From a virus (lineage: Duplodnaviria > Heunggongvirae > Uroviricota > Caudoviricetes): DNA of 35,520 nucleotides. Positions 3,056 through 35,520 of this stretch are shown here, piece after piece. A model generated the notes under the pieces. That model was not told the DNA's origin. It was given only the letters and a program-made list of their open reading frames with translations, and searched no databases. The DNA is taken from the IMG/VR virus record IMGVR_UViG_2724679293_000011, one strand, 5' to 3'. Within the stretch, counting starts at the first letter, position 1; the number at the start of each line of letters is the position of its first letter. The translations under genes and the position numbers were made by a program.

Positions 3056-6000
3056 TCAACGAATACTGATGCCGGAAGCAGCTTTTTTGGTCACAATCAC
3101 CGTACAGTCGGTGATATTGCCTGCCCCCTGATTGCCTTTCTGGAAAATCTTAAACTCCAGAGTGACGCTACCACCACCACTAGGCATATCAATAACTGCA
3201 CTGTAACTACCGGGAATGGCCCCTTTAGTTTCTCTGGATGCGATTAATACGCCGTTTTTGCGAACTTCAAAACCATAACCCGTGTATCGCGTGCCTCCTG
3301 GGTTATTTCCGCTCCCCGGATCGTCATACGCTATACCGTTAAAAATAATGGGCGGAATAATAATCTGGCGGTCAAAGTTATGATCATCGCTGATGGTGAC
3401 TGTAACCGTACCGTCTGGTGTTTCCGTGTTACCCCACGTACCGACTTTTTTCGGGAAGGCTTTTGATACAGCTTTAACGAAATCCCCTCTGACCTGGGTC
3501 GCCTCCAGCATGCCCTTAATCGTACAGTTCTGGTTAATCGTGACATTGTTGAGCGTTCCTGAGTTCGCATTCACACTGCCACTGATATCCGCATTTTTAG
3601 CGGTCAGCTTTCCGTCTGATGTCAGGGAAAATACCGGAGGACTGCCACCACTGGTAATGGTGGGGGCCGTCAGGCGCTTCAGGAACACGTCGTTCATGAA
3701 TATCTGATTGCCCTGCGCCACAAACATCGGCGTTTCATTCCCGTTTGCCGGGTCAATAAACGCGATACGGTTAGCGGCAACCAGAAACTGGCTCAGCTTG
3801 CCTTCCTCCGTGTCCTCCATGCTGAGGCCAATACCCGCGACATAATGTTTGCCGTCTTTGGTCTGCTCAATTTTGACGCCCCACATGGCATTCCATTTAT
3901 CGTTAGCGTCCTTCCACTCTTTCGAAAACTCATCCAGTCTGCTGGCGTTATCCTCCGTCAGATCAACTTTTTCCAGCAGCTCCTTGCCGAGATGGGATTC
4001 GGTTATCTTGCCTTTGAAAAAATCCAGGTAACCTTCCGCATCATCGCTCGCCCGACCGACGGCCTCCACGAATGCCGATTTGCCAACGGTGTTCACACTG
4101 CGGATATAAAAGTAATAATCATGGCCCGGTTTGATATTGATACTGGCGGCTATCCAGTACAGCCCCGTGCCAAGGTAGCGGGCTGTGGTTTCAACCTGCC
4201 TGATATCGGTAATCCGCGTTTCCGAGAACCAGAACTCAAACTGTACCGTCGGATCATAAACCGCAAGATGCGGCGTGGCAGTTATCTGAAAATAGCCCGG
4301 CGTCAGCTCAATCCGCGACGGCGCTGCCGGGGCGGCAATCCGGAACGATACCGACGCCGGATCGCCCTGCTGTCCCCGGGCATTTACTGCCCGGACCGTC
4401 AGCGTGTAACGCCCCAGCGCCAGCTGCCTGAAGCGGTAAGTGGTTTCCGTCGTCCGGGCCGTGCTGACCAGCCGCTCACTGCCGTCATCGGCGGCCACGG
4501 TCAGGCGAAGCATAAAGCTCACACCCTTCACTACCTTCGGCGTGTCCCAGCGCGCCAGCACCTGATACTCCCCACTGTCTGCGGTGACTTCGGCGGTCAG
4601 GTGCTGCACCGCTGGCGGCGTGACACCATTCACCGTGCCGCTCTGGTCGCCGTCAAAGTGCGCTCCGTTATCCACGATGGCCTCTTTTTCCGGCACATGC
4701 TGCACGGCAGTGATGGCATACATGCCGTCGTCGTTCTCACGGATACTCACACAGCGGAACAGGCGCTGGCGCAGCGTCGGCAGCTTCAGCCCCCACACGC
4801 TGTATCCGGCAACGCCGTCAGGAACACGGCTCACTTTCACCTTCACGCCGTCGGTGACGGACTGAACCTCCACGCTGACCGGATTGCCACTTCCGTCAAC
4901 CAGGCTTATCAGCGTGGTACCGGAGGATGGCAGCGTGATTTCACGGTCGAGCGTCAGCGTCCGGGTCTGGCTGTTCACCGCCAGCACACGCCCGCCGGTG
5001 CTGATCCCCGCATAGTCATCATCACAGATTTCAATGACATCGCCCGGTACATGGCGAAGCCCTTCTGCGCCCACGCTGAAGTCCACGGTCTGCGTCTCCA
5101 GCAGCTCCGTTTTAATCAGCCACAGCCCGGCGCGGTGTGCCTGCCCCCGACTGGTACAGCCAAAGGCATCCATCTTCGTGACGTTACGACCGTAACGGAC
5201 AATGGCCTGCGTATCCTCCACAAGCTCTGTCGCCGTCTCCCAGCCGTTATTCGGGTCAATCCAGTTCACCTCAACGGCATTATGACGGTCCTTCAGGGCG
5301 CTGAAGCTGTAGCGGAACGGCGCGCCATCATCCGGCATCACCACATTACTGCGGTTATAGGTCCACACCTTATCCGATGGCCGGTCCTGCACGAACGTCA
5401 GCGTCTGCCCGTTCCATACCGGCATACAGCGCATCGCCGAGCAGAAATCACTGAGCACATCCCACGCCTTGCGCTGCGTGGTCAGGTACGCATTACAGGT
5501 GATACGCGGTTCCGTGCCACCAAAGCCATCCGGCACCGACTGGTCGCAATTCTGGCCGATGACATACAGCGCCCATTTATCCACATCCGCCGCACCAAGA
5601 CGTTTCCCCATGCCGTAGCGCGGATGGGTCAGCATATCCCACAGACACCAGGCCATGTTGTTGCTGTATGCCGGTTTTAACGTTCCGTCCCAGATACCGC
5701 TGTATTGTCGCGTCTGCGGGTTATAGTTCGACGGCACCTGCAGAATGCGCCCGCGAAGATGATAATTACGGCTCACCTGCTGGCTGCCGAACTGCTCCGA
5801 ATCCACCTGTACGCCGACCAGTGCCGTGTTCGGGTAGCACTGTTTCACATCGATGATTTCGGTGTATGACGACCAGAGCGTTTTGTTCTGCAGCTGGTCT
5901 GTGGTGCTGTCCGGCGTCATTCTGCGCATCCGGATATTAAACGGGCGCGGCGGCAGGTTATCCACCACCACCGAGGCCAGATACTGCGAGGTGGTTTTGC

Positions 6001-6469
6001 CCTTAATGGTGATGTCTTTTTCCGTCACCCAGCCACCATTACGCTGTATCTGAACCAACAGACGGACTTCCGACGGATTCCTGTCACCCTTTGAGGTGGT
6101 TTCCACCAGTGCCTGTACACCGAAGGTAAAGCGCAGACGGTCGATGTTTGCCGACGTAATGGTGCGGGTGATCGGCGTGTCATATTTCACTTCCGTACCC
6201 AGCACCGTCTCGGAGCCGGAGGATTCAAACCCCTCCGGCGGAGTCTGCTCCTGCTCACCTGCCCGGAACACCACCGTGACGCCGGAGATATTGGTATTCC
6301 CCTCACTGTCCAGCACCGGCGTACTGTTCAGCAGCACGCTTTTTAATCCATCCACCGGACCTTCAACCGGCCCTTCGCTGATGGCATCGATCACACTCAG
6401 CAACTGCGTGGACTTCAGGTTGTCCTTCGCTTCGCGCGGAGTATGCCCCTTACTGCTGCCTTTACCCAT
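3056..6469 (-). CDS. J: Tail tip / host specificity protein J (central tail fiber)
   Basis: 1137-aa ORF; N-terminus [34 protein letters not shown]... and most of the length match lambda J as recalled. The C-terminal ~150 aa differ (see findings). Confidence 0.95.
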
Positions 6470-12235: not shown

Positions 12236-12625
12236 TCAGGACTTTTCCGGCGTCAGCGCCTCATGCTCATCATCCCCGGCATTATCAATGGCCCCCATAC
12301 CGCTCAGCGACAGAACCATCTCCGCCCCCGCCCCCAGGGCATCATACGACCATGTTGTAATAACGGATGCGCAAAGCGTCTCTACATCCTTAGACTGATC
12401 CGCATTCCACAGTGAGCGGGAAACCAGCCAGGCATTGATATCCATCCCCATCCGCAGAAAAGCAATCTGTCGTTCAGCCTCCGGCAGTTCTCCCTCCCCG
12501 GCATCAAACTTTGCCGTTCGCTGCTGAACAAACGCCAGATATTCAATTCTCTGCAGCCCGGACAGCTCACTGAGCACCACGGACTGTTTTTCATAATTAA
12601 ACGTGTCCTGTTTCAGAAACATCAT
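12236..12625 (-). CDS. G: Tail assembly chaperone G
   Basis: 129 aa; N-terminus MFLKQDTFNYEKQSVVLSELSGLQRIEYLAF resembles lambda gpG (MFLKTESFEHNGVTVTLSELSALQRIEHLAL) as recalled. Confidence 0.8.
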   Translation of the reverse strand: MMFLKQDTFNYEKQSVVLSELSGLQRIEYLAFVQQRTAKFDAGEGELPEAERQIAFLRMGMDINAWLVSRSLWNADQSKDVETLCASVITTWSYDALGAGAEMVLSLSGMGAIDNAGDDEHEALTPEKS

Positions 12626-14424: not shown

Positions 14425-14700
14425 TTACTCAATAAAGATCATTGGCTTACCGTTAAAGCGTTCATGCCGTGTGACCGTCCATTGTTGTCCGTCATAAACA
14501 ACGCGATCCCCGCGCCGTGGGCGGTATCCCGAAGAAAACACCACCAGAGAGACCGCAGGTCCGGACAGAGCATTCAGCTCTGCCAGTGTTTCTCCCGGGA
14601 TCACAGTCATATCGACATCATTAATCGAGGCTGTCTTTCCCATCTTTCTGACCGTGATAGCATCCATACGCGCTGCCAGCCGGGAAAAGGGATCAGACAT
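14425..14700 (-). CDS. Head-tail joining protein, FII-like
   Basis: 91 aa; pattern ...AARMDAITVRKMGKTASI...PRRGDRV... resembles lambda gpFII (...DAAIARADETIRGYMGTSATI...RRGD...) as recalled; sits between the head and tail modules. Confidence 0.65.
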   Translation of the reverse strand: MSDPFSRLAARMDAITVRKMGKTASINDVDMTVIPGETLAELNALSGPAVSLVVFSSGYRPRRGDRVVYDGQQWTVTRHERFNGKPMIFIE

Positions 14701-15016
14701 TGAGTTTTACCGGCACTTCTTCTGCACTGGTTCCGGCATCTGCCCAGACAACCCCGACCAGCGGATCAGAGCCGCTGTTAGTCAGCTGAACTTTTCCGGA
14801 CTTCAGATAAACCTTCTTACCCGTTTTCATGTCATCCGTTTTCAGCTTAGGCAGCATAAACACACCTTCGGTCATGCCGTCGCCTGTTTCACCCTGTGGA
14901 ATATCGGTCAGCGCCACCGCAAAAACATCGCCCACCTGCACCAGATCTCCGCTGCTGATGGCTGCACTGGCAACAATCGCCACCGTTTTTCCTTCTTCTA
15001 CAAAATTCTTTGCCAT
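14693..15016 (-). CDS. Small head structural protein (DUF2190-like; possible decoration or head completion protein)
   Basis: About 107 aa from the internal Met (MAKNFVEEGKTVAIVA...), immediately downstream of the capsid gene; Gly/Val-rich beta-type sequence. Confidence 0.55.
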   Translation of the reverse strand: MAKNFVEEGKTVAIVASAAISSGDLVQVGDVFAVALTDIPQGETGDGMTEGVFMLPKLKTDDMKTGKKVYLKSGKVQLTNSGSDPLVGVVWADAGTSAEEVPVKLNV

Positions 15017-15102: not shown

Positions 15103-16788
15103 TTACGCCGTACATTTCACCAGACCGCGGTGATCAACTGGCGCGACACCGGCGTCAATACGCACTTTCGTTGTCACGCCATCCACACTGAAGCCCTCCA
15201 TCTGATCAATATATGGCGTATCCACACCGTTGAGATAAGCCACTTCAATCGTATCGGAGCCTTTTGACGCAGCCAGGTAGAAGGTGGTCTGGCTGTTATC
15301 ATCAAGACGAGGCTCTGCAATAACGGTCGCAAAATCTTTCACCGGGTTAATAATACCGGCGTTAATGTCAGCCCCCTTGACACTTGAGGAGCGAATGACC
15401 TGGTTAGCAACAGACTCCATCGCCGTCGGTACCAGTACGAACGCAGGACGAATATTCAGATGACGCTCCCCCTCTTTCTGAACGCGCATCAACTGGCGGG
15501 CTTTATCCAGCGATGCCACGTCCATTGCAGCGCTCTCCAGTACGTTTGCATGTTTCGCTTTATCGAACAGACTTACATTATCTGTGGAGATTTTCGGGTT
15601 AGACGTCAGAATGGCATAAACCAGATCGGCAATAGTGGATTTCGCCGCACGGCCCAGTTTCATCGGGACATCGGTCAGCATATTCAGATCATCATTGATA
15701 ATGGCCTGACGGGTGATACTGAACAGCTCGCCATAGGTCGCCAGTGCAATAGTGGCCTGTTTATCTCCGGTGGTGACGTATTTATATTCCGCCCCTTCAC
15801 GCACCTGACGCAGAGCACTGAAGCCCCCCATACCCACACGATGGGCAATTTTAAAATCAGACAACTGACCTTTCCGCGTCCACTGTTCATAGGTTTCAGG
15901 GGCATCTTCCCAGCCCTGCAGAATGGCTTTGTTCGCAACATCCAGCAGAATATTACCGAAGTCAGACGTACTGTGTGTGAACGCCGCACCGACCATCTGC
16001 ATCGGGTTATAACCGGAAACCCCAATACCCCGTTCAGTTAGTGACATACGGGCATATTCACGCAGGGTCATCCCGTTGTAGACATTATCACGTTCGGTTT
16101 TTTCAAATCCGGCACGCGCCATCAGCGCCTGGCGAATCCCGTCCCCCACAAAATTACCGTTACCGGCATAAATATGAGCCGGGGTATTTTTATTGGATGG
16201 CGTGGACTCGCGCCCCATCTCGTTCAACAGCTTTTCACGGGCCTGCTCCAGCGAACATTCAGGATCGGCAAGACACTGAGCCTGCAGCGTCTGATAACGC
16301 CCGCCAAACATGGCAAACAGATCATTAATACCGTTTACACGCGCTTTTTGCTCTGCCAGTACCTGCGCACGGATGCTGTTTTCATCCACCACGGGTGCTG
16401 CTGCCTGCACTGGCGTCCAGGAGGCTTCAGATTCATTATCCTGTACGCGTGGAGCACTGTTGCGTGGCGGAGTAATCATGTTTCGAATGGATTCCGGCAT
16501 CTTTTTAAATTCCTCTGTACGTTTTGACTGAATACATGCCATTGCCTTAACGGCTGGCGTTACCTGATCAGCAAATCCATGTGCCAGACATTCGGCACCG
16601 GACATCCAGGTCTCATCCGCCAGCATGGCAGCAATTTCATCGGTGGTTTTCCCGGTTTTCTGTGCATAAGCGGGTAACAGAACCGCCTCAACTTTATCGA
16701 GCAGGTCGGCATAGGTGCGCATGTCCTCCGCATCACCGCCCGTAAAGCCAAATGGTTTATGAATCATCATGAAGGTGTTTTCCGGCAT
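15103..16788 (-). CDS. Major capsid protein (HK97-fold type) preceded by a scaffold-like region and the C-terminal part of a ClpP-type prohead protease; downstream segment of a frameshift-split gene
   Basis: The N-terminus MPENTFMMIHKPFG carries the ClpP His-box; the C-terminal ~300 aa look like a major capsid protein; a weak hairpin plus T-run follows the stop (about 15061-15080). Confidence 0.75.
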   Translation of the reverse strand: MPENTFMMIHKPFGFTGGDAEDMRTYADLLDKVEAVLLPAYAQKTGKTTDEIAAMLADETWMSGAECLAHGFADQVTPAVKAMACIQSKRTEEFKKMPESIRNMITPPRNSAPRVQDNESEASWTPVQAAAPVVDENSIRAQVLAEQKARVNGINDLFAMFGGRYQTLQAQCLADPECSLEQAREKLLNEMGRESTPSNKNTPAHIYAGNGNFVGDGIRQALMARAGFEKTERDNVYNGMTLREYARMSLTERGIGVSGYNPMQMVGAAFTHSTSDFGNILLDVANKAILQGWEDAPETYEQWTRKGQLSDFKIAHRVGMGGFSALRQVREGAEYKYVTTGDKQATIALATYGELFSITRQAIINDDLNMLTDVPMKLGRAAKSTIADLVYAILTSNPKISTDNVSLFDKAKHANVLESAAMDVASLDKARQLMRVQKEGERHLNIRPAFVLVPTAMESVANQVIRSSSVKGADINAGIINPVKDFATVIAEPRLDDNSQTTFYLAASKGSDTIEVAYLNGVDTPYIDQMEGFSVDGVTTKVRIDAGVAPVDHRGLVKCTA

Positions 16789-17062
16789 AATTGACCGGGT
16801 TTCCTACCATCGCAATGACCGACGCCATTGACGCCGCCACACCGTCGACATAAACGGTAATGGACGCACCATGTGTTTTCAGCGCATTAAAAATGGCGAT
16901 GCCTTCAAAGACATCGCCACCCGGTGAATTAATATGGAGATTAATGTGGGTGATATCGCCCAGTGCATTCAGATCACTGATAAACTGCTTCGCTGTAACA
17001 CCCCAGAAACCAATCTCGTCATAAATATAAATATCCGCGTCACTCTGGTGACCAGCCTGCAT
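16757..17062 (-). CDS. ClpP-family (S14) prohead protease, N-terminal segment ending prematurely; upstream segment of the frameshift-split protease-capsid gene
   Basis: Translation from the Met just after the portal stop, MQAGHQSDADIYIYDEIGFWGVTAKQ...INSPGGDVFEGIAIFNAL...GVAASMASVIAMVG, contains the ClpP Ser motif; the matching His motif is in the next frame (15103..16788). Confidence 0.7.
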   Translation of the reverse strand: MQAGHQSDADIYIYDEIGFWGVTAKQFISDLNALGDITHINLHINSPGGDVFEGIAIFNALKTHGASITVYVDGVAASMASVIAMVGNPVNYAGKHLHDDS

Positions 17063-17075
17063 CCTGAACCAGGAA

Positions 17076-18584
17076 TTATTCTTCGGACTGGTCGTCGGTG
17101 TGCTGCGGCTCCTGTCGTTTCGTTGCGGCACTACTGCCTCCTTTATCACTGGCCGGATCGGTATCAAATACCAGATCCAGCTTGCGGTTTTCATCAATTT
17201 CGGCCTTGCGCCGACGTTTGACATCATCCGGATTACGACCACCAGCACGTACCCAGTCTGATTCTGTCGCCGCTCCACCACGAATCTGGATTTTCCAGGC
17301 CTCAGCCTCCTTAACAGGGTCAATCCACGGCATCACTGGTCCGGAATACACCGCGGTATACAGTGAAGAACGGTCAAGATCGCGGGGTAGCCTGATAACA
17401 CCGGATGCCACAGCCTGTTTCAGCCATGCACGATACATCGGGCGGGTGACGGCACCAATAAACCAGTCCTGCAGGATCAGGTAGCCATCAGTGGATTCAA
17501 CCAGCTCCTGACGCTGGGCGCTGTAAGTGCCGTTATAGTTGCGCGCTGTACTGGAAAAACTCAGACGACTGCCCGCCGCCACGGCACGCAACTGACCATT
17601 ACGAAAAGTTTCAAGGTTAGGATTGGGGCGATCCGACTTCACCATTCCGATTTCTTCGCCGGGTTTCAGATCGTCGTAAATAATGCCCGGCTGAATGGTA
17701 AGCTCACGTTCATTCTCCTTTCTGCCATTACCATCCGGTTCATAGCTCTGCCCGTCGCCTTTCCGGATGTACATCCCCAGAGCAGCGGCGATCCTTGCTG
17801 CAGTCAGCTCAGAATCTTCATATTCTTTCAGGGCACTGAGGCGGATCAGCACACCGGACAACAAAGACGTCCCGCGCATCTGGTGCAGACGGCGAACAAA
17901 TTTAAGATGCAGCATTCGCTCTGCATCCACTTCTTTGGTTTCCATCTGCCGTCCGGATACGGGACGGCTTTTATACACCAGATATTTTTCGGGACGCCCC
18001 CAGTCATCAACAAACACGCCCTGATTCAGCCTGTTGCTCTCATCACTAGTCATGGGAATAAAGTCCGGCTCGAGCGCCTCCAGCCAGAAATGAACACCGG
18101 CAGAAGGCGCCAGGCTGTTTATGCGCCCGGAAACCATCTGGGCAAACACCTCACCATCGCGCAGCCAGGTACGAAGCATCAGACGTTCCAGCATCGGACG
18201 GGTAAACTGCCCGGTGACTTCCGGGCTGACAGACCATTCACTCCATCGGGTGCGAATCTCCGCAGCCAGGTCACGGGCAATGGCCCCATTGCGTAATACC
18301 GGATGTGGCTCGACAATAATCCCGTTTTTCCCCACCACCCGTTCTTCCAGCTTGTCAAATACACCAATAACCAGATCGTGGTTGTTATCAAGGTAACGGG
18401 CCTGCTCACGTAACGACACGGCCCCGTACTGGCTTAACTGGTCGGCAGTTCGGTTCTCCCGTCGGGCTTTGTGTGTCCGCGTCGTTTTTACGGCCTCATA
18501 AGCCTGGATCACCGCACGGGAACGCAGCCTTGCCGCTTTCCATCCTGGTGAAAAAACGCCAATCACATCATCAAGAATTGCCAT
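17076..18584 (-). CDS. Portal protein (lambda gpB-like)
   Basis: About 502 aa from the Met whose ATG overlaps the stop of the upstream W-like gene (TGATG); lies between terminase and prohead protease. Confidence 0.85.
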   Translation of the reverse strand: MAILDDVIGVFSPGWKAARLRSRAVIQAYEAVKTTRTHKARRENRTADQLSQYGAVSLREQARYLDNNHDLVIGVFDKLEERVVGKNGIIVEPHPVLRNGAIARDLAAEIRTRWSEWSVSPEVTGQFTRPMLERLMLRTWLRDGEVFAQMVSGRINSLAPSAGVHFWLEALEPDFIPMTSDESNRLNQGVFVDDWGRPEKYLVYKSRPVSGRQMETKEVDAERMLHLKFVRRLHQMRGTSLLSGVLIRLSALKEYEDSELTAARIAAALGMYIRKGDGQSYEPDGNGRKENERELTIQPGIIYDDLKPGEEIGMVKSDRPNPNLETFRNGQLRAVAAGSRLSFSSTARNYNGTYSAQRQELVESTDGYLILQDWFIGAVTRPMYRAWLKQAVASGVIRLPRDLDRSSLYTAVYSGPVMPWIDPVKEAEAWKIQIRGGAATESDWVRAGGRNPDDVKRRRKAEIDENRKLDLVFDTDPASDKGGSSAATKRQEPQHTDDQSEE

Positions 18585-21599: not shown

Positions 21600-21680
21600 G
21601 CCTTTTTCCGCGACGCTCCCGCCCCGTGGCAGGGGCCCCCACCGGGAGGACCCGACAGCCTGACAGCCTGACAGCCGTGA
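21600..21680. other. Candidate cos site (cosN/cosB-like GC-rich element) about 170 bp upstream of the terminase small subunit gene
   Basis: The minus strand reads CGGGGCGGGAGCGTCGCGG, resembling the lambda cosN end GGGCGGCGACCTCGCGG as recalled. It is a GC-rich island in an AT-rich intergenic region, with three tandem GACAGCC heptamers alongside. Confidence 0.3.
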
Positions 21681-21812
21681 TGAGCATCTGATACAGCGCT
21701 TTACATAATGGCATAGGAATAATTCAGAAGGACATCACAGCATGCCCACACAAATTAGTGTGAGTGTCCTGTTTCTTCCTACGCACAGGACTGACGAGCA
21801 TGAGGGGAAAAT

Positions 21813-21980
21813 ATGCGAACCATAAATGCCTCATCTTCAGCAATGCAACCGGCATCCGAACAGGACGATATTGTAAATTCACCTAATTACGAGGACATTG
21901 CAGTAGTTGAATTGCAGCTCTGTATTAGCCTGACAGTGACAGAATGCGATATTGACTCTGTCACAGGTGAAATAGTTTGA
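21813..21980 (+). CDS. Hypothetical small acidic protein (55 aa)
   Basis: ATG preceded by GAGGGG at 5-nt spacing; below the ORF-track size cut-off; function unknown. Confidence 0.3.
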   Translation: MRTINASSSAMQPASEQDDIVNSPNYEDIAVVELQLCISLTVTECDIDSVTGEIV

Positions 21981-22000
21981 ATGATTAGCAGTTATGGTGC

Positions 22001-22207
22001 TCAGTCAACCACCAGGGAATAATCCTTCGAATTCTTATCGTGCTTCACCAACGCTGCCTCAATTGCCCTGAATGCTTCCAGAGACACCTGATGTTCTATA
22101 CATGCAATTACAACATCCGGGTAACTCATAGAAATGGTGCTATTAAGCATATTTTTTACACGAATCAGATCCAACGAGACTTCATCAGCAGATTGTTCTT
22201 TATTCAT
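22001..22207 (-). CDS. Hypothetical protein (68 aa)
   Basis: ORF with a GGAG ribosome-binding site; convergent with the 55-aa ORF; no family recognised. Confidence 0.45.
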
Positions 22208-22507
22208 TTTGTCGCTCCATGCGTTTGCTCGTCATCTAGCGGTTAAAATATTACTTCAAATCTTACTGCATAAAAGAGGAAAAGTATGAAAGTTTGAGTA
22301 CATCGACCTTACATACATCTGTCGGTTGCATATCCCTCCTGGATGCCAGCAAGGCTCAATTTTGTTACGCAATCAACACTATTCATTAAAAACAGGCTTA
22401 ATATTTGACATAAATCATCAACAAAACACAAAGAGGTCAGACCAGATTGAAACAATAAACACGATAATGCTAACTACGCGCCATCGTATCACATGGAAGG
22501 TTTACCA

Positions 22508-22918
22508 ATGGCTCAGGCTGCCATTTTTAAAGAAATATTCGATCAAGTGCGTAAAGATTTAAACTGTGAATTATTTTATTCTGAGCTAAAACGTCACAAT
22601 GTCTCACTTTATATTTACTATTTAGCCACAGATAATATTCACATTGTGTTAGAAAACGACAACATAGTGTTAGTAAAAGGACTCAAAAAGGTTGTAAATG
22701 TTAAATTCTCCAGAAACAAACATCTTATAGAGACCTCCTATAATAAGTTGAAATCAAAAGAAATCACATTTCAACAATACAGGGAAAATCTTGCTAAAGC
22801 AGGAGTTTTCCGATGGGTTACAAATATCCAGGAACACCAAAGATATTACTATGCCTTTGATAACTCATTACTATTTACTGAAAGCATCCAGAAAACTACA
22901 CAGATCTTACCACGCTAA
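22508..22918 (+). CDS. ydfO: DUF1398-family protein (YdfO/YbcV-like prophage moron)
   Basis: 136 aa from [19 protein letters not shown]... with a GGAAGG ribosome-binding site; same length and gene neighbourhood (between the packaging genes and gnsB/cspI) as K-12 Qin ydfO as recalled. Confidence 0.75.
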
Positions 22919-23069
22919 ACCATAACGTCCGGCTTCTCTCACTCCTGAGCCGGACTGCATTGGTTTAATAAAAACCATCAACAATTGTGATTTAGATATT
23001 CGGAACCATTCAAATATAACAAAACCCCGTAAAAACGAGGTTTATGGATAAATTTTATTATTGAATACA

Positions 23070-23243
23070 TCAGATTAAATTAATCTTGACATCATAGCTT
23101 TCAAGACCCGTCATTTTTTCCCGTGCGGTAAACTGAATACTGGTAACTTCTTTCCCGGTCTTTTTCTTAAGTTCAATAATTTTTTTTGTTATATATTCAG
23201 AAATATCTGCTTCTGCTTTTGTTTTTAAGTTTTCAATATTCAT
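23070..23243 (-). CDS. gnsB: Gns-family protein (GnsB-like)
   Basis: 57 aa, MNIENLKTKAEADISEYITKKIIELKKKTGKEVTSIQFTAREKMTGLESYDVKINLI, read directly from the sequence; below the ORF-track cut-off; resembles GnsA/GnsB. Confidence 0.75.
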   Translation of the reverse strand: MNIENLKTKAEADISEYITKKIIELKKKTGKEVTSIQFTAREKMTGLESYDVKINLI

Positions 23244-23414
23244 CATTTCCTCTTTTAGTCTGTTATGACTTTCCAGTTACACAGTAAGTCGATTATATGG
23301 TGCAAACGTGTAAAAGATAAGATGAAACATCGCAATAATCAACATACGATAGTCTAAATTTTACACAAACAGACAAAGAAAATTTTCCTGAATTATCAAT
23401 ACAATAGCATCAAA

Positions 23415-23645
23415 TCAACTCAAGAGCCTTATTGCTGCTTCCAGAATTTCTTCTGAAGTAACATGTCGATCCGCGGCTACATAAATGACTTTATGATCTC
23501 CGGTCAGAGATGGAAACCCTGCGGCCATTACAGTAAGGTGTGTTTTTTCGCCATTTGGATATTCACGCATGATGGTGTTAACTCCAGTCATCGCTGGCAC
23601 TACCACTGCTGGTTCAGAGTTAAAAAAAACTATGATTTTTTTCAT
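23415..23645 (-). CDS. Hypothetical protein (76 aa)
   Basis: Start at MKKIIVFFNSE...; preceded by a hairpin plus T-run terminator at about 23691-23715; no family recognised. Confidence 0.45.
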   Translation of the reverse strand: MKKIIVFFNSEPAVVVPAMTGVNTIMREYPNGEKTHLTVMAAGFPSLTGDHKVIYVAADRHVTSEEILEAAIRLLS

Positions 23646-23916
23646 GATGTTACCGTAGTATGTGAGTATCCATCGAATAGATACCAAGCAAAAAAGCTCC
23701 CGAAGGAGCCTTCATTTTCACTTTTTTAAATCCAACGACAGACGGCTGGCATTTAAGTATTGTGAAATATTATCAAATGTAATCATCATTGATTTACAAA
23801 AGATACATTTTGCCCCGAAAGGATTCATGTCAGAAACATCAAAAGATGATGTTCTATACTGGGAACCATGACAACACGGGCATCTAAAGTGAATATGGTT
23901 TGTAATATTGTCTACC

Positions 23917-24129
23917 TCAAAGCGCCACTACATGAACAGCGGCAGGACCTTTAGGTCCGTTCTCAATACCAAATTCAACTTCCTGATTCTCAGTTAATGT
24001 TTTGAAATCGTTGCTCTGAATTGCTGAGAAATGGACAAACACATCTTTGCTGCCATCTTTCGGCGTGATGAAACCAAAACCTTTTTCAGGGTTAAACCAT
24101 TTCACTAAACCAGTCATTTTGTTAGACAT
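23917..24129 (-). CDS. cspI: Cold shock protein (CspA family), CspI-like
   Basis: 70 aa, [70 protein letters not shown], with RNP1/RNP2 cold-shock-domain motifs; a long AT-rich leader upstream (24130-24480) is typical of csp genes. Confidence 0.9.
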
Positions 24130-24490
24130 AATTATTACCTTTTGAAGAAATTAGCCCTTGGGCAGAATGGTCCGAAAAAAATATCAGAGAGAAAAACCAA
24201 CAAGGAAATCTCAAGAGGTACAAATAATAAAATTATAACAATGACTGCTTCAGATAAATTTGTAACAAACCAGAACACCATTAACGCATGATTAACCACC
24301 CATAGCAAGGATTACTTTTGTAAAGAAAAACACAGCAATGAAAGAATAGCTTTATTTATTAATAAAACGTGTCATTCTGATTAAGACCTTTTATCTTACC
24401 CTTAAGATTTCAGGAATTTTGGCTCATGGAAGAGTCCTTTTTATTTAAATTTTACATTCCGCGATGTAAATGTTCCGATTTAATATTACC

Positions 24491-25514
<1,024 letters not shown>

Positions 25515-25518
<4 letters not shown>

Positions 25519-25826
25519 ATATATTTATGATGAGGACGCTCGTGCTTATTGGCAGGATTTTCAATCTTAAAGGAGTACTGATGCTGCAGATAAGACTCAA
25601 CTTTTTCTGACAATTTTTCTGCTACTTCCAGGAAGACTTGCCGGACGCTCCTTCTGGCTGCTGCCTCATAAAACTCCAGCGCAGCTCCTTCAACACGGTC
25701 CATGGCGACATCCAGGTCAAAAATTTCACCGTCAAAGCGTTCCTTGTCCTGTAAGGCTACAGTTACCGTAACTTTATTCTCAAAATTACGGACTCCTTTC
25801 ACAACCAGTTCATAGTCTTGAGTCAT
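25515..25826 (-). CDS. ydfR: DUF1327-family protein (YdfR-like) between holin and lysozyme
   Basis: 103-aa ORF translationally coupled to the lysozyme; position matches K-12 Qin ydfR as recalled. Confidence 0.65.
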
Positions 25827-25830
25827 TGGA

Positions 25831-26046
25831 TTACTCTCCTCTCGCAGCCTTACGCCTGTCTTCTTTAATCTTGAAATAAAGATTTGTCAGATACGTCAGC
25901 AGGCCAAAAACCAGGCTACCCAGCACACCGATTGCAGCCCACTGTGACGGAGTTACTTTATCGAGTAACTGTAATGCCCAGAAACCAGCATTACCCGCCG
26001 ATGTGCCATAGGCAACACCTGTTGTTAACTTATCCATTGATTTCAT
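25831..26046 (-). CDS. essQ: Holin
   Basis: 71 aa from [71 protein letters not shown]; two hydrophobic segments and a charged C-terminus; first gene of the lysis cassette. Confidence 0.85.
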
Positions 26047-26265
26047 ATCCTCACCCCGATGTACACGGATGGTGCAATATGTTTGAAAAAGATCGGAGTC
26101 TACGGGGTAGTTTTGACAGCACACGTTGTTCTCAACGGCGCTAAAGAAACATACACATTAAAAATGTGAGTAATTATTTTGAAAGAAAGTCATATATAAA
26201 ATAATAATACGAGAAATGTTTTCATATTTAGTGTACTGTATACGGCCATTATACAGGAAAAGCCT

Positions 26266-26436
26266 ATGTCAGAACGTAAAGACTCAAAATCACGCCGTAA
26301 TTATCTCGTTAAATGTTCCTGCCCAAACTGCACCCAAGAGTCAGAACACAGTTTTTCAAGAGTACAAAAAGGTGCCCTTTTGATCTGCCCTCATTGCAAC
26401 AAAGTATTCCAGACAAATCTTAAAGCTGTAGCCTGA
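26266..26436 (+). CDS. Small zinc-ribbon protein (56 aa, two CxxC pairs), YnfU-like
   Basis: MSERKDSKSRRNYLVKCSCPNCTQESEHSFSRVQKGALLICPHCNKVFQTNLKAVA read from the sequence; AGGAAA ribosome-binding site; below the ORF-track cut-off. Confidence 0.55.
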   Translation: MSERKDSKSRRNYLVKCSCPNCTQESEHSFSRVQKGALLICPHCNKVFQTNLKAVA

Positions 26437-26494
26437 TTGATTTTATTAGTAACAAGTATTTTTTATATTTTAATAATATATTTAAAGCAGATAA

Positions 26495-26518
26495 TAAAAA
26501 ACCCGCCTGAGCGGGTTT
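26495..26518 (-). terminator. Rho-independent terminator downstream of cspB
   Basis: acccgcc-tga-gcgggt hairpin preceded by A6 on the plus strand (hairpin plus TTTTTTATTAT on the minus strand). Confidence 0.45.
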
Positions 26519-26799
26519 GAGATTGTGGTGCTTTTTGTGGGAGTCATCCACTTACGCACTTTGTTTTGCGATGCCAGCAGTTAGCTTCTGCTGTGAAACT
26601 ATTCATGCAGCAAACCTGCACTTCACCACAATGGTTAGCATACTTTTCCTGATTAAGATTTTGCCAAATATGCTAGCCATTGTTTCATGTATTGGACCTC
26701 CTTACTTTTTATTAAAGAGATCCAATATTCACTACTCTGTCCGTATCTCTACTCAGGCATCAGCCTTCTTCGTTATCGTATACAGACGAGCGATGAATT

Positions 26800-27015
26800 T
26801 TAATCAGTAATGATGACATTTGCTGCTGCAGGACCTTTAGCACCTCTCTCTATAGAGAAGGTAACCTTTTGACCTTCAAATAAGGTTCGATAATTATCAT
26901 TCTGAATCGCAGAAAAATGCACAAACACATCTTTACTACCATCAACAGGAGAAATAAAGCCGAAACCTTTATCAGCGTTAAACCATTTTACTAAACCAGT
27001 CATTTTATTTGACAT
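26800..27015 (-). CDS. cspB: Cold shock protein CspB-like
   Basis: 71 aa, [71 protein letters not shown]. Confidence 0.9.
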
Positions 27016-27325
27016 TCTACATTCCTTAACTTGAGCCTTTCGGCATAAATGGTTTGCATAACAGAAACGACTTCGTACTTAATTGGAGAGACTCAAAGAA
27101 GGAATAAGTGAATAACACCTGAAATGAGAACTGCTTTAGTAAACTACTTCGTATATCGTCTGTTCTTCAAACCGACGCAGTCATTAACTCATAGTTGAAC
27201 ATATGAAGCAATGTTTATTTTAGACATCCAGCCACCTTCAATCCTATCAAAAAAGTAGTTTTCTCCAGGAACGTGTGTATGGTGCACCAGGTTATCAGTA
27301 TTAAGGAGTTTTTCTGTCCCCTAAA

Positions 27326-27522
27326 ATGACAGGAATTGTCAAAAACTTTGACTACAAAAGCAGCAAAGGTCTTATATTCCCATCCGATGGCGTATCGATG
27401 CCCAGCTTCACGTTTCAGCTCTCAATCTTCGAGATGCAGAAGAAATTACCACAGGATTACGCGTGGAATTTTGCTGGATAAATGGTTCGCGTGGACCTTC
27501 AACTGCCAATGTTTATCCCGGG
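27326..27522 (+). pseudogene. cspF: Cold-shock gene remnant (CspF-like) disrupted by a 1-nt frameshift and loss of the normal stop
   Basis: Frame A from the ATG at 27326 gives [22 protein letters not shown], then goes out of frame around 27390. The Csp-like continuation [42 protein letters not shown] is in the next frame and reads on for about 100 more codons. Confidence 0.55.
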
Positions 27523-31150: not shown

Positions 31151-32938
31151 ATGGACGATATTAATATCAGCCTCGACGAACTTAACACTATTGATTTATC
31201 CCCCTTAATCCAGAGTAAGCTGCCAGTTACCTGCTTTGATATCACAAAGTATCTTTCTAGCCTAGGTGATGGAAGAGCGGAGATAAGACTGCTAACCCAT
31301 ATTTGCGGTTTTCACTTTCGTCCCGAAAATCCACAGGTACCATTTGGTCCGTGCTTTCAAAGCAGCCAAGGTAGATCTGCAATTCCGGATGACATTAACG
31401 GGTTGTCGCTGGAGGTACTTTCTCAATTTTGCCCGACGATAGAGCTACCCGAACTTCAAGCTCGTATTGCTGATACACTTTGGGTTCGTAAAATTGGTGG
31501 AATCCGTTTTCCTTTGCTGGCAGTCCGTGCTTATTATGCGTCCAGTATAGCTATTATGACATCGCAAGGGACGTGGGTTAGTGCTTTAGAACGCCTAGAG
31601 CGTGCGCTTAGGCTGTGTTGTTTTTTTCGAAAGCATACTGATTTCAGGGATGAATTTGATCAGCTTTCGGCACATCTACTAGCAGAGTATGAACGTACCA
31701 GAGAACAAGGCGATTCACCTTATCCGCTGCGACTCCTGCAACTCGATATCGACTGTAAAGTGAGTGAGCCATCTTTTATTGCCCAGGAACTCCTGTTTCT
31801 GACAAAAAACTATCTGGCTCAAAAATTATTTTCATTTGCCGTCGATGCCTGTAAAACCGCAATCCCGATTGCGAATAGGTGCTGTGACAGAGATACACAG
31901 TTTGAATTCTGGCGGCTTCTTGCCGATACACATCTGGAAGAGTCAAAATTCCAAGATGGCGGTATGATTTCGGCAGCCTGCATGCAGAATGCTATTGAAG
32001 CACTGGCTAATATTCCAGGAACCCGAATAGAACGTCTTGCGCTGTATGAAGAAATGCGTGATTACCAAATCGAATCCCGTCACCAGATGTCTATCCTTCA
32101 GTCTCCCCCTCAAGATATTAGTGAGATTGTCCATCAAGCCAAGAGTCGGGTAGTCGGAAGAGATTTGTTTGATATGGTTTTCAGACTTGCGATGCTGGTC
32201 TGTCGGCCAACCAGCATTGAGAGACTTAAGGCTCAAGCAATAGAACAAAAGGCCAACAGCATAGCTTGGATGTTTGGATCAACACATATTGATCATGAGG
32301 GAATGACACTTGCTCGCATACCCGCAGGATTGGGGATTGATGATGCAAATGGGGCAGTTATTTGGCCCATAATGATGACGAGAATGCGTATCGACCATGA
32401 GTTGGCAGTAGCTGGGCAAATTATTCCTGCTACAGATGAGATCACAATGAAATATCCAATCTCGGAGGCGTTTTTTCGCGATATGTTCATCAATCATCCC
32501 TTCATCCCGTTTGGGCATGAAGAGTTTTTCATCAAGGGTATGGTTTGCGGTTTCAATGGAGATTTTATGACGGCATGCCACGTGTTGATTCCCCAGATCG
32601 AAAATAGTCTGAGATATGTGGCTAAAATTAAAGGTGAGGAACCATCGCAGCTTCACGGGGACGGTTCGCAAGAGCGAAATGGACTCAAGGGATTACTAGA
32701 TAATCCACTGATTATTGAAGCTTTCGGCGTAGACATAATTGGCAATCTTCAGGCCTTACTGGTAGATAAAATCTATGGTGATTTACGAAATCAACTAGCT
32801 CACGGATATGTGCCTGCCGGTTACTACAATCAACCTCCCTGCATTTTTGCATGGTGGCTTGTATTGCACATTCTAATGAACCCTACGGCGAGATACTGGC
32901 AAGCCACTTATGGCCAAGAGAGTGAGGCTCAGACTTAA
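31151..32938 (+). CDS. Unknown 595-aa protein with C-terminal HEPN-like R-x4-H motif (LRNQLAHGY); candidate abortive-infection or defence effector
   Basis: Clean ATG ORF with an AAGGTGA ribosome-binding site on the strand opposite the surrounding prophage genes, and a long AT-rich leader; the motif R546-N-Q-L-A-H551 is encoded at 32786-32803; no Walker A/P-loop seen; family not recognised. Confidence 0.8.
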   Translation: MDDINISLDELNTIDLSPLIQSKLPVTCFDITKYLSSLGDGRAEIRLLTHICGFHFRPENPQVPFGPCFQSSQGRSAIPDDINGLSLEVLSQFCPTIELPELQARIADTLWVRKIGGIRFPLLAVRAYYASSIAIMTSQGTWVSALERLERALRLCCFFRKHTDFRDEFDQLSAHLLAEYERTREQGDSPYPLRLLQLDIDCKVSEPSFIAQELLFLTKNYLAQKLFSFAVDACKTAIPIANRCCDRDTQFEFWRLLADTHLEESKFQDGGMISAACMQNAIEALANIPGTRIERLALYEEMRDYQIESRHQMSILQSPPQDISEIVHQAKSRVVGRDLFDMVFRLAMLVCRPTSIERLKAQAIEQKANSIAWMFGSTHIDHEGMTLARIPAGLGIDDANGAVIWPIMMTRMRIDHELAVAGQIIPATDEITMKYPISEAFFRDMFINHPFIPFGHEEFFIKGMVCGFNGDFMTACHVLIPQIENSLRYVAKIKGEEPSQLHGDGSQERNGLKGLLDNPLIIEAFGVDIIGNLQALLVDKIYGDLRNQLAHGYVPAGYYNQPPCIFAWWLVLHILMNPTARYWQATYGQESEAQT

Positions 32939-33156: not shown

Positions 33157-33558
33157 TTATCCCTGATAAAATGCCAGTATGCGCTGCATAACTTCACTCA
33201 TCCGGCACTCGCGACAGATTATGTTTAGGCGACTGTCGTAGCGACGTATTTCTCCATCAGGTAACGACCAGATAAGGTCCGGATCAACCACAGCTGTTTT
33301 CTTCACCTTTGCCCTCGAGAGTTTTTTGCGGGCGTTTTGCCAGTCCTTACGCGCCTGTTCAGACGGGAATAACCCGTAGCCGGAGTTGTATACATCGCCA
33401 CTGGCTACCAGCTCTCTGGCAAGAACGCTCATCAGATATCTAGTCGCACCTGTTTTAGCTTCCAGTTGCCGTAACGTCTCACGACCGCTCTGGCGCACGA
33501 GTTCCACCACCTGCCCTTTAATTTTTTCCCGCTCTTCTTGTGTAAAAACTTTTGCCAC
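33157..33558 (-). CDS. Hypothetical basic protein (133 aa) immediately downstream of the O-like replication gene
   Basis: GTG start behind AAGGGGGA; C-terminal CxxC (CRECRM); occupies the position of a replication partner (P-like) but is too small and unlike lambda P. Confidence 0.55.
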   Translation of the reverse strand: MAKVFTQEEREKIKGQVVELVRQSGRETLRQLEAKTGATRYLMSVLARELVASGDVYNSGYGLFPSEQARKDWQNARKKLSRAKVKKTAVVDPDLIWSLPDGEIRRYDSRLNIICRECRMSEVMQRILAFYQG

Positions 33559-33598
33559 AAGTCCCCCTTAAAATTACCTCATGACCTGAAATCAAAAC

Positions 33599-34463
33599 TT
33601 ATCCTCTGAAACCAGGCGGAATTTCTGTATTCGGTTCAGAAATATGATTAACACAACGCTGTACAGGTGAACGCCCCAGGCGGATGACCAGTTCGTCCCA
33701 TTTTTCGCGGAGCTTTGACGGGCTCATGATGTTTTTTACCCAGAATGGATCCCGCTGTACCCGACCAAACATTTCACAAATTTGTCTGTGGCTTCTGCCA
33801 TCCAGCATCCGCATTGTGCGCACATCATTGGCCCAGACAGTCCAGTTAGGCTCTTTTGGTCGCATGATCTCGCCATCATCACTGGCGGCCTGTTCGTAGA
33901 GACCCACGATCCGCCCCCATATCCACTGCGCACACGCCAGATCCTCCTGGCTACCCCACTGGCGTTTTTTCGCACTAAACACAACTGCGCCAGGGTGCCG
34001 GATTAAAAAATCCTGTTCAGCCGTCTGCGGGTCCGGTTGCGAAGCTTCCGGACGAAAAGTGTTTTTATTCTCTGTAGTAATCTCTGTTGTATTCTCTGTA
34101 GGATCATCGGGCCATTTTGACCCGATGACATTGGGTCGTTTTGAACCAATGGAGCGTTTCATTTTGACCTCTTCCATCGTGTCATTTTGACCTGATGGAG
34201 CGGCGCATTTTGAACCGATGGATTCGCTCAATTTGCCATCATCTAAAAGCTCGCTCCCATAGTTAATCGTGTAGAAATTGGTCATATCGCGCTTTGATTT
34301 ATTGAGCTTTTCACAACGCAAAAGCCCCAGCGTTTTCAGACTTGCAAACGCGCGCTTTAACGTTGACTCTGACCAGAATGGGAACTGTTCCAGCCATTGT
34401 TCCGTTGTGTTGTAAATCCAGCGAACACCATCACATTCCATGCCGGAATTGGTATCTCTCAAC
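33599..34463 (-). pseudogene. Replication initiator (lambda O-like, iteron-binding), 5'-truncated by IS903 insertion
   Basis: The ORF 33599..34552 continues about 30 codons into the IS903 left end, so its native N-terminus is displaced; the gene body contains the iteron array, which shows up in the protein as repeated SIGSK-type peptides. Confidence 0.65.
34110..34230. repeat. Origin-like iteron array: five direct repeats with consensus CATTTTGAMCYGATGG at 22-25 bp spacing, adjacent to an AT-rich segment (34060-34105)
   Basis: Repeats begin near 34113, 34138, 34160, 34183 and 34206 and lie inside the O-like gene, as the lambda ori iterons lie inside O. Confidence 0.6.
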
Positions 34464-35520
34464 GGCTTTGTTGAATAAATCGAACTTTTGCTGAGTTGAA
34501 GGATCAGATCACGTATCTTCCCGACAACGCAGACCGTTCCGTGGCAAAGCAAAAGTTCAAAATCACCAACTGGCCCACCTACAATAAAGCCCTCATCAAC
34601 CGTGGCTCCATAACTTTCTGGCTGGATGATGAGGCGATTCAGGCCTGGTATGAGTCAGCAACACCTTCTTCACGAGGCAGACCTCAGCGCTATTCTGACC
34701 TTGCCATCACGACTGTGCTGGTCATTAAACGCGTATTCAGGCTGACCCTGCGCGCTGCGCAGGGCTTTATTGATTCCATTTTTTCTCTGATGAACGTTCC
34801 GCTACGCTGCCCGGATTACAGCTGTGTCAGCAGGCGGGCAAAGTCGGTTAATGTCAGTTTCAAAACGCCCACCCGGGGTGAAATCGCACACCTGGTAATT
34901 GATTCCACCGGGCTGAAGGTCTTCGGTGAAGGCGAGTGGAAAGTCAAAAAGCATGGCCAGGAACGCCGCCGTATCTGGCGTAAGCTGCATCTCGCCGTTG
35001 ACAGTAAAACACATGAAATCATCTGCGCTGACCTGTCGCTGAACAACGTTACGGACTCAGAGGCCTTCCCCGGGTTAATCCGGCAAACCCACCGGAAAAT
35101 CAGGTCAGCCGCCGCCGATGGCGCTTACGATACCCGGCTATGTCACGATGAACTGCGGCGTAAGAAAATCAGCGCGCTTATCCCTCCCCGAAAAGGTGCG
35201 GGTTACTGGCCCGGTGAATATGCAGACCGTAACCGTGCAGTGGCTAATCAGCGAATGACCGGGAGTAATGCGCGGTGGAAATGGACAACAGATTACAACC
35301 GTCGCTCGATAGCGGAAACGGCGATGTACCGGGTAAAACAGCTGTTCGGGGGTTCACTGACACTGCGTGACTACGATGGTCAGGTTGCAGAGGCTATGGC
35401 CCTGGTACGAGCGCTGAACAAAATGACGAAAGCAGGTATGCCTGAAAGCGTGCGTATTGCCTGAAAACACAACCCGCTACGGGGGAGACTTACCCGAAAT
35501 CTGATTTATTCAACAAAGCC
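34464..35520 (+). mobile_element. IS903-group insertion sequence (IS5 family), complete 1057-bp copy with 18-bp terminal inverted repeats
   Basis: Left end GGCTTTGTTGAATAAATC at 34464-34481 and its exact reverse complement at 35503-35520; length 1057 bp as recalled for IS903; the window ends at the last base of the element. Confidence 0.9.
34496..35464 (+). CDS. IS903 transposase (DDE, IS5 family)
   Basis: 322-aa ORF from a TTG start; ...KQKFKITNWPTYNKALINRGSITFWLDDEAIQAWYESATPSSRGRPQRYSDLAITTVLVIKRVFRLTLRAAQGF... matches IS903/IS102 transposase as recalled; the annotated start may be the internal GTG (307 aa). Confidence 0.9.
   Translation: MKDQITYLPDNADRSVAKQKFKITNWPTYNKALINRGSITFWLDDEAIQAWYESATPSSRGRPQRYSDLAITTVLVIKRVFRLTLRAAQGFIDSIFSLMNVPLRCPDYSCVSRRAKSVNVSFKTPTRGEIAHLVIDSTGLKVFGEGEWKVKKHGQERRRIWRKLHLAVDSKTHEIICADLSLNNVTDSEAFPGLIRQTHRKIRSAAADGAYDTRLCHDELRRKKISALIPPRKGAGYWPGEYADRNRAVANQRMTGSNARWKWTTDYNRRSIAETAMYRVKQLFGGSLTLRDYDGQVAEAMALVRALNKMTKAGMPESVRIA

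Follow-up and report, generated by a model that had tools for sequence, protein, structure and literature searches.

The fused ClpP-like prohead protease–major capsid protein gene carried by a Qin-like prophage in the window (the whole 35,520-nt stretch of DNA that was analysed) is, with a probability of about 0.9 as judged from sequence comparison, a genuine and recent E. coli pseudogene that arose by insertion of a single base and represents one step of ordinary prophage decay. The gene family, NF045540, and the biology of the Gifsy-2 tripartite gene are already established, and the exact allele already stands in RefSeq as a "frameshifted" pseudogene. The present analysis corrects the position of the lesion, shows it to be a mutation and not an assembly error, supplies a single-base marker by which a small E. 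coli lineage can be recognised, and adds a further example of the fused protease–capsid gene as a recurrent target of decay. The finding has little significance beyond bookkeeping, and new biology is not implied.

One extra base separates the Ser and His motifs of the protease

The late operon on the minus strand of the window is lambda-like and includes the following features of the head region.

15103..17131, minus strand: whole pseudogene, fused ClpP-like prohead protease, linker/scaffold and major capsid protein (PGAP, NF045540)
16757..17131, minus strand: N-terminal fragment of 124 aa from a GTG start, first protease half with the Ser box
15103..16788, minus strand: C-terminal ORF of 561 aa from the first ATG, second protease half, linker/scaffold and capsid domain
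16791..16792, minus strand: lesion, one extra coding-strand A (extra T in the plus-strand TT), from alignment to FHI_NMBU_03
17076..18584, minus strand: lambda-family portal gene, intact, directly upstream (PF05136 E = 8.5e-82, PGAP of the identical sequence, open frame)
14693..15016, minus strand: DUF2190/Phage_cement_2 head-decoration gene, intact, directly downstream (annotation, open frame)

The initial annotation had described a frameshift splitting the protease between its Ser and His motifs, with the two parts in ORFs 16757..17323 and 15103..16788 of the minus strand, and both ORFs were present exactly as described. According to the ORF list, the first contains ...GVAASMASVIAMVGNPVNYAGKHLHDDS* at its end, and the second, one frame over, begins with MPENTFMMIHKP... 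The Pfam profile CLP_protease was matched at positions 15–100 in ORF 16757..17323 and at positions 105–179 in ORF 15103..16788, and the NCBIfam profile NF045540, that of the ClpP-like prohead protease/major capsid protein fusion protein, was matched at positions 2–84 and 85–651, respectively. The continuation of both profiles across the two ORFs indicated that these were adjacent pieces of one gene, bearing out the described split. An intact 675-aa allele differing from the window sequence by one base scored 984.3 bits against NF045540 over positions 2–651 of 652, and the C-terminal ORF on its own scored 828.3 bits, both exceeding the curated cutoff of 475 bits. The one uninterrupted frame of the NF045540 family is broken in the window by the extra base at 16791/16792, which would make this copy a pseudogene of the family and no functional member of it. 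In the C-terminal ORF, Phage_capsid_4 (PF25209) was matched over residues 261–558 with E = 5.8e-55, and PF10124 was matched more weakly (Pfam, sequence level), assigning a predicted HK97-type major capsid domain to the C-terminal end of the fusion.

Alignment of the repaired protease domain to solved structures of bacterial ClpP (among them PDB 1y7o and 6hwm; E = 6e-17) placed the Ser of AASM on the ClpP "AASM", the His of MIHKP on "MIHQP", and ADETWMS on "ERDNWMS". In ClpP, the AASM, MIHQP and acidic motifs carry the catalytic Ser, His and Asp. The corresponding minus-strand codons of the window lie at 16831–16829 for Ser, 16761–16759 for His, and 16617–16612 for the acidic position, which is the DE pair of ADETW, the alignment fitting either residue. 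The Ser–His spacing is 23 residues in the phage domain and 25 in ClpP. Unlike bacterial ClpP, the phage protease shares one polypeptide with scaffold and capsid domains. Its domain scored 59.6 bits against the ClpP equivalog TIGR00493, for which the cutoff is 308.6, identifying it as a predicted head-maturation protease rather than an ATP-dependent Clp subunit.

The gene starts with GTG at 17131, with a good Shine-Dalgarno sequence AAAGGAGG just before it. Alignment to the intact allele of FHI_NMBU_03 revealed a sole difference in the gene, GGTCAATTATG in the window versus GGTCATTATG in the intact allele, where an extra coding-strand base in the context GGTCA[A]TTATG changed the codons GTC ATT ATG to GTC AAT TAT G. 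The ancestral peptide across the site is AMVGNPVIMPENTF, and the intact 675-aa product reads ...AMVGNPVIMPENTFMMIHKP... The initial annotation had placed the indel in the CCCGG run at 16795–16800; the alignment moved it to 16791/16792, still inside the interval of 16757–16810 that had been reported. This displacement by a few bases led to a wrong repaired peptide, ...NRSIMPENTF, which was a frame-restoring guess. In the window, the last ancestral residue (V of NPV) is followed by 11 out-of-frame residues, NYAGKHLHDDS, and by a premature TAA at 16759–16757 that overlaps the His codon.

The insertion recurs across assemblies

A 2401-base query across the gene matched 2015 records of complete E. 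coli genomes with at least 80% coverage. Among the matches listed, all but 3 spanned 2400 bases against the 2401 of the query, the exceptions being 2 carriers of the insertion and 1 copy interrupted by an IS. The intact alleles were otherwise 100% identical to the window over 2.4 kb, and this one-base difference over an otherwise identical sequence indicated that the insertion was recent. A 61-base probe centred on the insertion matched 1021 records of complete E. coli genomes, exactly in 2 and non-exactly in 1019, and the 28 non-exact matches listed were all 60 bases long. The two carriers are F2_407_2_2 (CP074756) and 7_33_46A (CP074819), bovine isolates from Nebraska, in both of which PGAP labels the gene [quoted passage not shown]. 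No literature was found on these two strains or their accessions.

Beyond the complete genomes, the draft GCA_002923495.1 (contig BEKD01000015.1), an assembly separate from the window, was 100% identical to it over 6375 bp around the gene and contained the same split; judging by its geometry, this contig is not the source of the window. The exact 124-aa product (accessions GCH89304.1, GCI59989.1 and GDR02890.1) and the exact 555-aa product were each found on about 20 contigs, drawn from NCBI, Logan and ENA. The latter length reflects the choice of a later ATG by gene callers for the start of the C-terminal ORF, which also explains why an exact-sequence look-up of the 561-aa ORF returned no match while that of the 124-aa fragment did. 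The window itself is a further assembly, being colinear with 7_33_46A over 35,520 bases with 39 substitutions, all confined to 1614–2398. This 785-bp stretch takes in the last codons of a lom-like gene, the sequence just upstream of the side tail-fibre gene and the 5′ part of the latter, and the reading frame across it is still open; the patch looks like recombination or gene conversion, or else a repeat-driven assembly difference.

An error of sequencing or assembly in an intact genome, which the initial annotation had raised in the form of a homopolymer error, would account for the rarity of the allele (2/1021 complete-genome records) and for the single base that sets the window apart from the intact alleles, and other frameshifted genes do occur nearby in one relative assembly, that of F2_407_2_2. 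These are ynfE and ydfI, host genes bordering the prophage that are also labelled "frameshifted" (CP074756 locus, 3743–6168 and 42000–42401); ydfI is intact in 7_33_46A, and the breaks in F2_407_2_2 hint at more pseudogenes or at some indel noise in one assembly. We nevertheless regard an artefact at the capsid gene as very unlikely. The run hit by the insertion is 2 bases long and is thus not a homopolymer, and neither a GATC nor a CCWGG methylation motif was present at the lesion. The identical insertion is shared by at least 4 assemblies (the window, CP074756, CP074819 and GCA_002923495.1), and the contigs with the exact products were generated by three different pipelines, one of them the Logan assembly of public runs. 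The same one-base artefact, at a non-homopolymer site, in so many assemblies and pipelines is not credible. The presence of the extra base in 2 complete RefSeq genomes and an independent draft supported the further proposal of the initial annotation that the protease–capsid gene is inactivated.

Related phages keep the gene in a single frame

In the E. coli lambdoid phage records mEp460, cdtI, Ayreon, phi458, Tritos, HannyBb and vB_EcoS-569R4, the gene is a single open frame next to the same portal neighbour, and its product is 98.5–99.4% identical to the intact allele over the full 675 aa. Three of these (mEp460, cdtI and Ayreon) are plaque-forming phages, and the set represents the functional state ancestral to the window allele. 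Further uninterrupted homologues were found in mEp213, mEp043 and LLS (73%), in Fels-1 (72%) and in a series of Pseudomonas phages (56%). The alignment to homologous genes that the initial annotation had suggested as a check gave single frames in these phages, and in the E. coli records listed apart from the two carriers and the IS-interrupted copy the site was without the extra base.

The closest parallel in gene organization is the tripartite capsid gene of the Salmonella phage Gifsy-2 (Effantin et al. 2010, Virology 402:355, as cited in PMC12315714 and PMC8538268). The Gifsy-2 gene (NC_010393.1, 22552–24555), annotated as "bacteriophage Clp protease involved in capsid processing", resembles that of the window in combining the ClpP-like protease, linker/scaffold and major capsid protein in one gene, located between lambda-family portal and trimeric cement/decoration genes. 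A gene of the Gifsy-2 type would be expected to free its mature capsid protein from the polyprotein by autoproteolysis as heads assemble; as regards homology, the Gifsy-2 protein is 69.5% identical to the intact allele over 97% of the length. In contrast to the window copy, which a +1 insertion breaks between Ser box and His box, the gene is uninterrupted in Gifsy-2, which is an inducible phage.

Decayed copies of the same gene family were found elsewhere. The gene is interrupted by IS629 in the Stx1 phage VT1-Sakai (AP000400.1, 23248–26576) and by ISVsa5 in APEC E12049 (NZ_CP126952.1, 2459522–2463259), and it is annotated as disrupted by a reading-frame shift in Pseudomonas phage PAN70. All three differ from the window in lesion and position, 2 of the 3 being IS insertions and not 1-bp changes. 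In VT1-Sakai and E12049, other prophages have each had the gene inactivated in a separate event, and the decayed copies in all three records indicated that prophages decay repeatedly by losing it.

Predicted products of the split gene

The sequence comparisons indicate that a lambdoid prophage of the Qin type, residing at ydfJ, gained one A:T pair in a strain from which a small group of E. coli descends. Ribosomes starting at the usual GTG would leave the frame after ...AMVGNPV and stop 11 codons further on, yielding a 124-aa fragment that would keep the nucleophilic Ser of the triad and lose its other two members, the His and the acidic residue. The 555–561 codons left over, specifying the His, the acidic residue, the scaffold and the capsid, would be translated solely through inefficient internal initiation or reinitiation, for which the ATGs at 16788 or 16773–16768 are candidate starts. 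A scaffold–capsid polypeptide could be made from these ATGs; being devoid of half of the ClpP fold, the downstream product could not be expected to act as a protease. We infer that the prophage cannot build and mature its own heads.

Even less probable than an artefact is a partly functional split gene, in which reinitiation at the ATG ATG would provide the scaffold–capsid protein, with processing by a protease acting in trans, co-assembly, or non-covalent association of the two protease halves. The near-identical protease would come from a co-resident lambdoid prophage. In line with such an arrangement, the in-frame ATGs at 16773–16768 lie 9–16 nt upstream of the premature TAA, the C-terminal ORF exceeds the NF045540 cutoff unaided (828 bits), both complete carriers have a second place matching the 2.4-kb query, and up to 6 such places occur per E. 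coli genome. Against it, the split state bears no sign of selection, the break falls in the middle of the ClpP domain, and the allele, which is uncommon and of recent origin, belongs to a prophage that has also lost replication and early genes. We consider it highly doubtful that a protease-less scaffold–capsid protein is matured by a co-resident lambdoid prophage or enters its heads; if true, the defective prophage would parasitise or poison the capsid assembly of its neighbour.

Programmed +1 ribosomal frameshifting, by which the split would be a regulated route to the full-length polyprotein, has a negligible probability: the ORFs do overlap by 32 nt and a +1 shift anywhere in 16803–16760 would restore the protein, but the frame is uninterrupted in every listed E. 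coli record except the two carriers, and likewise in Gifsy-2, Fels-1, mEp460, cdtI and the Pseudomonas phages. Recoding sites are conserved among homologues. Here, the frame change was confined to 2/1021 complete E. coli records, with phage genes single-frame down to 56% identity. Inspection of the overlap (16760–16803) detected neither a prfB-like CUU-UGA nor any further motif known for +1 shifts; rare-codon and stop-stimulated shift sites were likewise absent, and the sole A-run, GGA AAA C, would slip by −1 into the wrong frame. Programmed frameshifting was rejected for lack of both conservation and a motif. Ordinary prophage decay, rather than a sequencing artefact or a recoding signal, thus remains the reading of the frameshift that the sequences favour.

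A candidate recoding site of a different kind was noted in the same operon. The end of the tail chaperone gene G, at 12236–12250 on the minus strand, reads CCG GAA AAG TCC TGA, and the next gene, T, is in the −1 frame. In lambda-like tails, a conserved programmed −1 frameshift makes gpGT. By analogy, 12236–12250 is the expected place of the gpGT frameshift and would be a genuine recoding site, unlike the mutation in the capsid gene.

Other damage to the prophage

The prophage occupies the Qin site, between rspA/ynfA and ydfJ, and carries the Qin signature genes hokD, rem, ydfU, ydfT, cspB, cspF, essD, rrrQ, rzpQ, cspI, gnsB, tfaQ, pinQ and ydfK, resembling the Qin cryptic prophage of E. coli K-12 in both chromosomal site and signature genes. 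K-12 Qin has lost its head and tail genes. The window prophage differs from it in possessing a complete morphogenesis module, in which the frameshift was the only reading-frame break found: all 18 of the 18 other head and tail genes, as well as the in-window part of the tail-fibre gene, were open. Relative to FHI_NMBU_03, the structural module likewise showed no indel apart from the insertion at 16792, and the rest fell in 21669–27391, upstream of the structural genes. Among these were an 8-bp tandem duplication, TGACAGCC, at 21669 and changes of 1–2 bases, certain of which affect runs of A or of T (24182, 26090, 26251).

At the other end of the window, two features bear on replication of the prophage.

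34464..35520, plus strand: IS903B, 1057 bp, with terminal inverted repeats GGCTTTGTTGAATAAATCG...CGATTTATTCAACAAAGCC; transposase annotated in an identical relative
33599..34463, minus strand: remnant of an O-like replication initiator gene, its first ~34 codons removed by IS903

Disruption of the O gene by IS903 had been noted in the initial annotation and was confirmed by this comparison, which gave ~34 codons as the part cut from the O-like replication gene. Window positions 33161–34463 align to 3395–2093 of the FHI_NMBU_03 locus, where the intact O-like gene spans 1992–2957 and specifies a protein matching phrog_391, "replication initiation O-like", with E = 4e-92. The outer inverted repeat of IS903B is flush with the final base of the window, which gives the impression that IS903 set the boundary of the source contig or region. 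In 7_33_46A, IS903 abuts the host gene rspA, and the integrase, excisionase, repressor and early operons are absent; this loss from int to O is read from 7_33_46A, the window itself stopping at the IS end. The context of IS903B is rspA / IS / O′ in 7_33_46A and int′ / IS / cspI′ in F2_407_2_2, and the different contexts in these two complete relatives pointed to separate IS903-linked deletions that followed the frameshift. Since the two strains differ in their IS903-flanked deletions and have the insertion in common, the latter was apparently inherited from a common ancestor.

Irrespective of the frameshift, the element is predicted to be a defective prophage. The proposal of the initial annotation that it is non-inducible is accordingly reasonable, with support coming mostly from damage other than the frameshift, namely IS903 in the O-like gene and the early region lost in 7_33_46A.

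A 595-aa DUF4209-domain gene was observed on the opposite strand at 31151–32938 (plus strand), between a DUF977/Ren-like gene and hokD. The same position in FHI_NMBU_03 is occupied by a methyltransferase remnant and QueH, making the DUF4209 gene a putative cargo (moron) swap.
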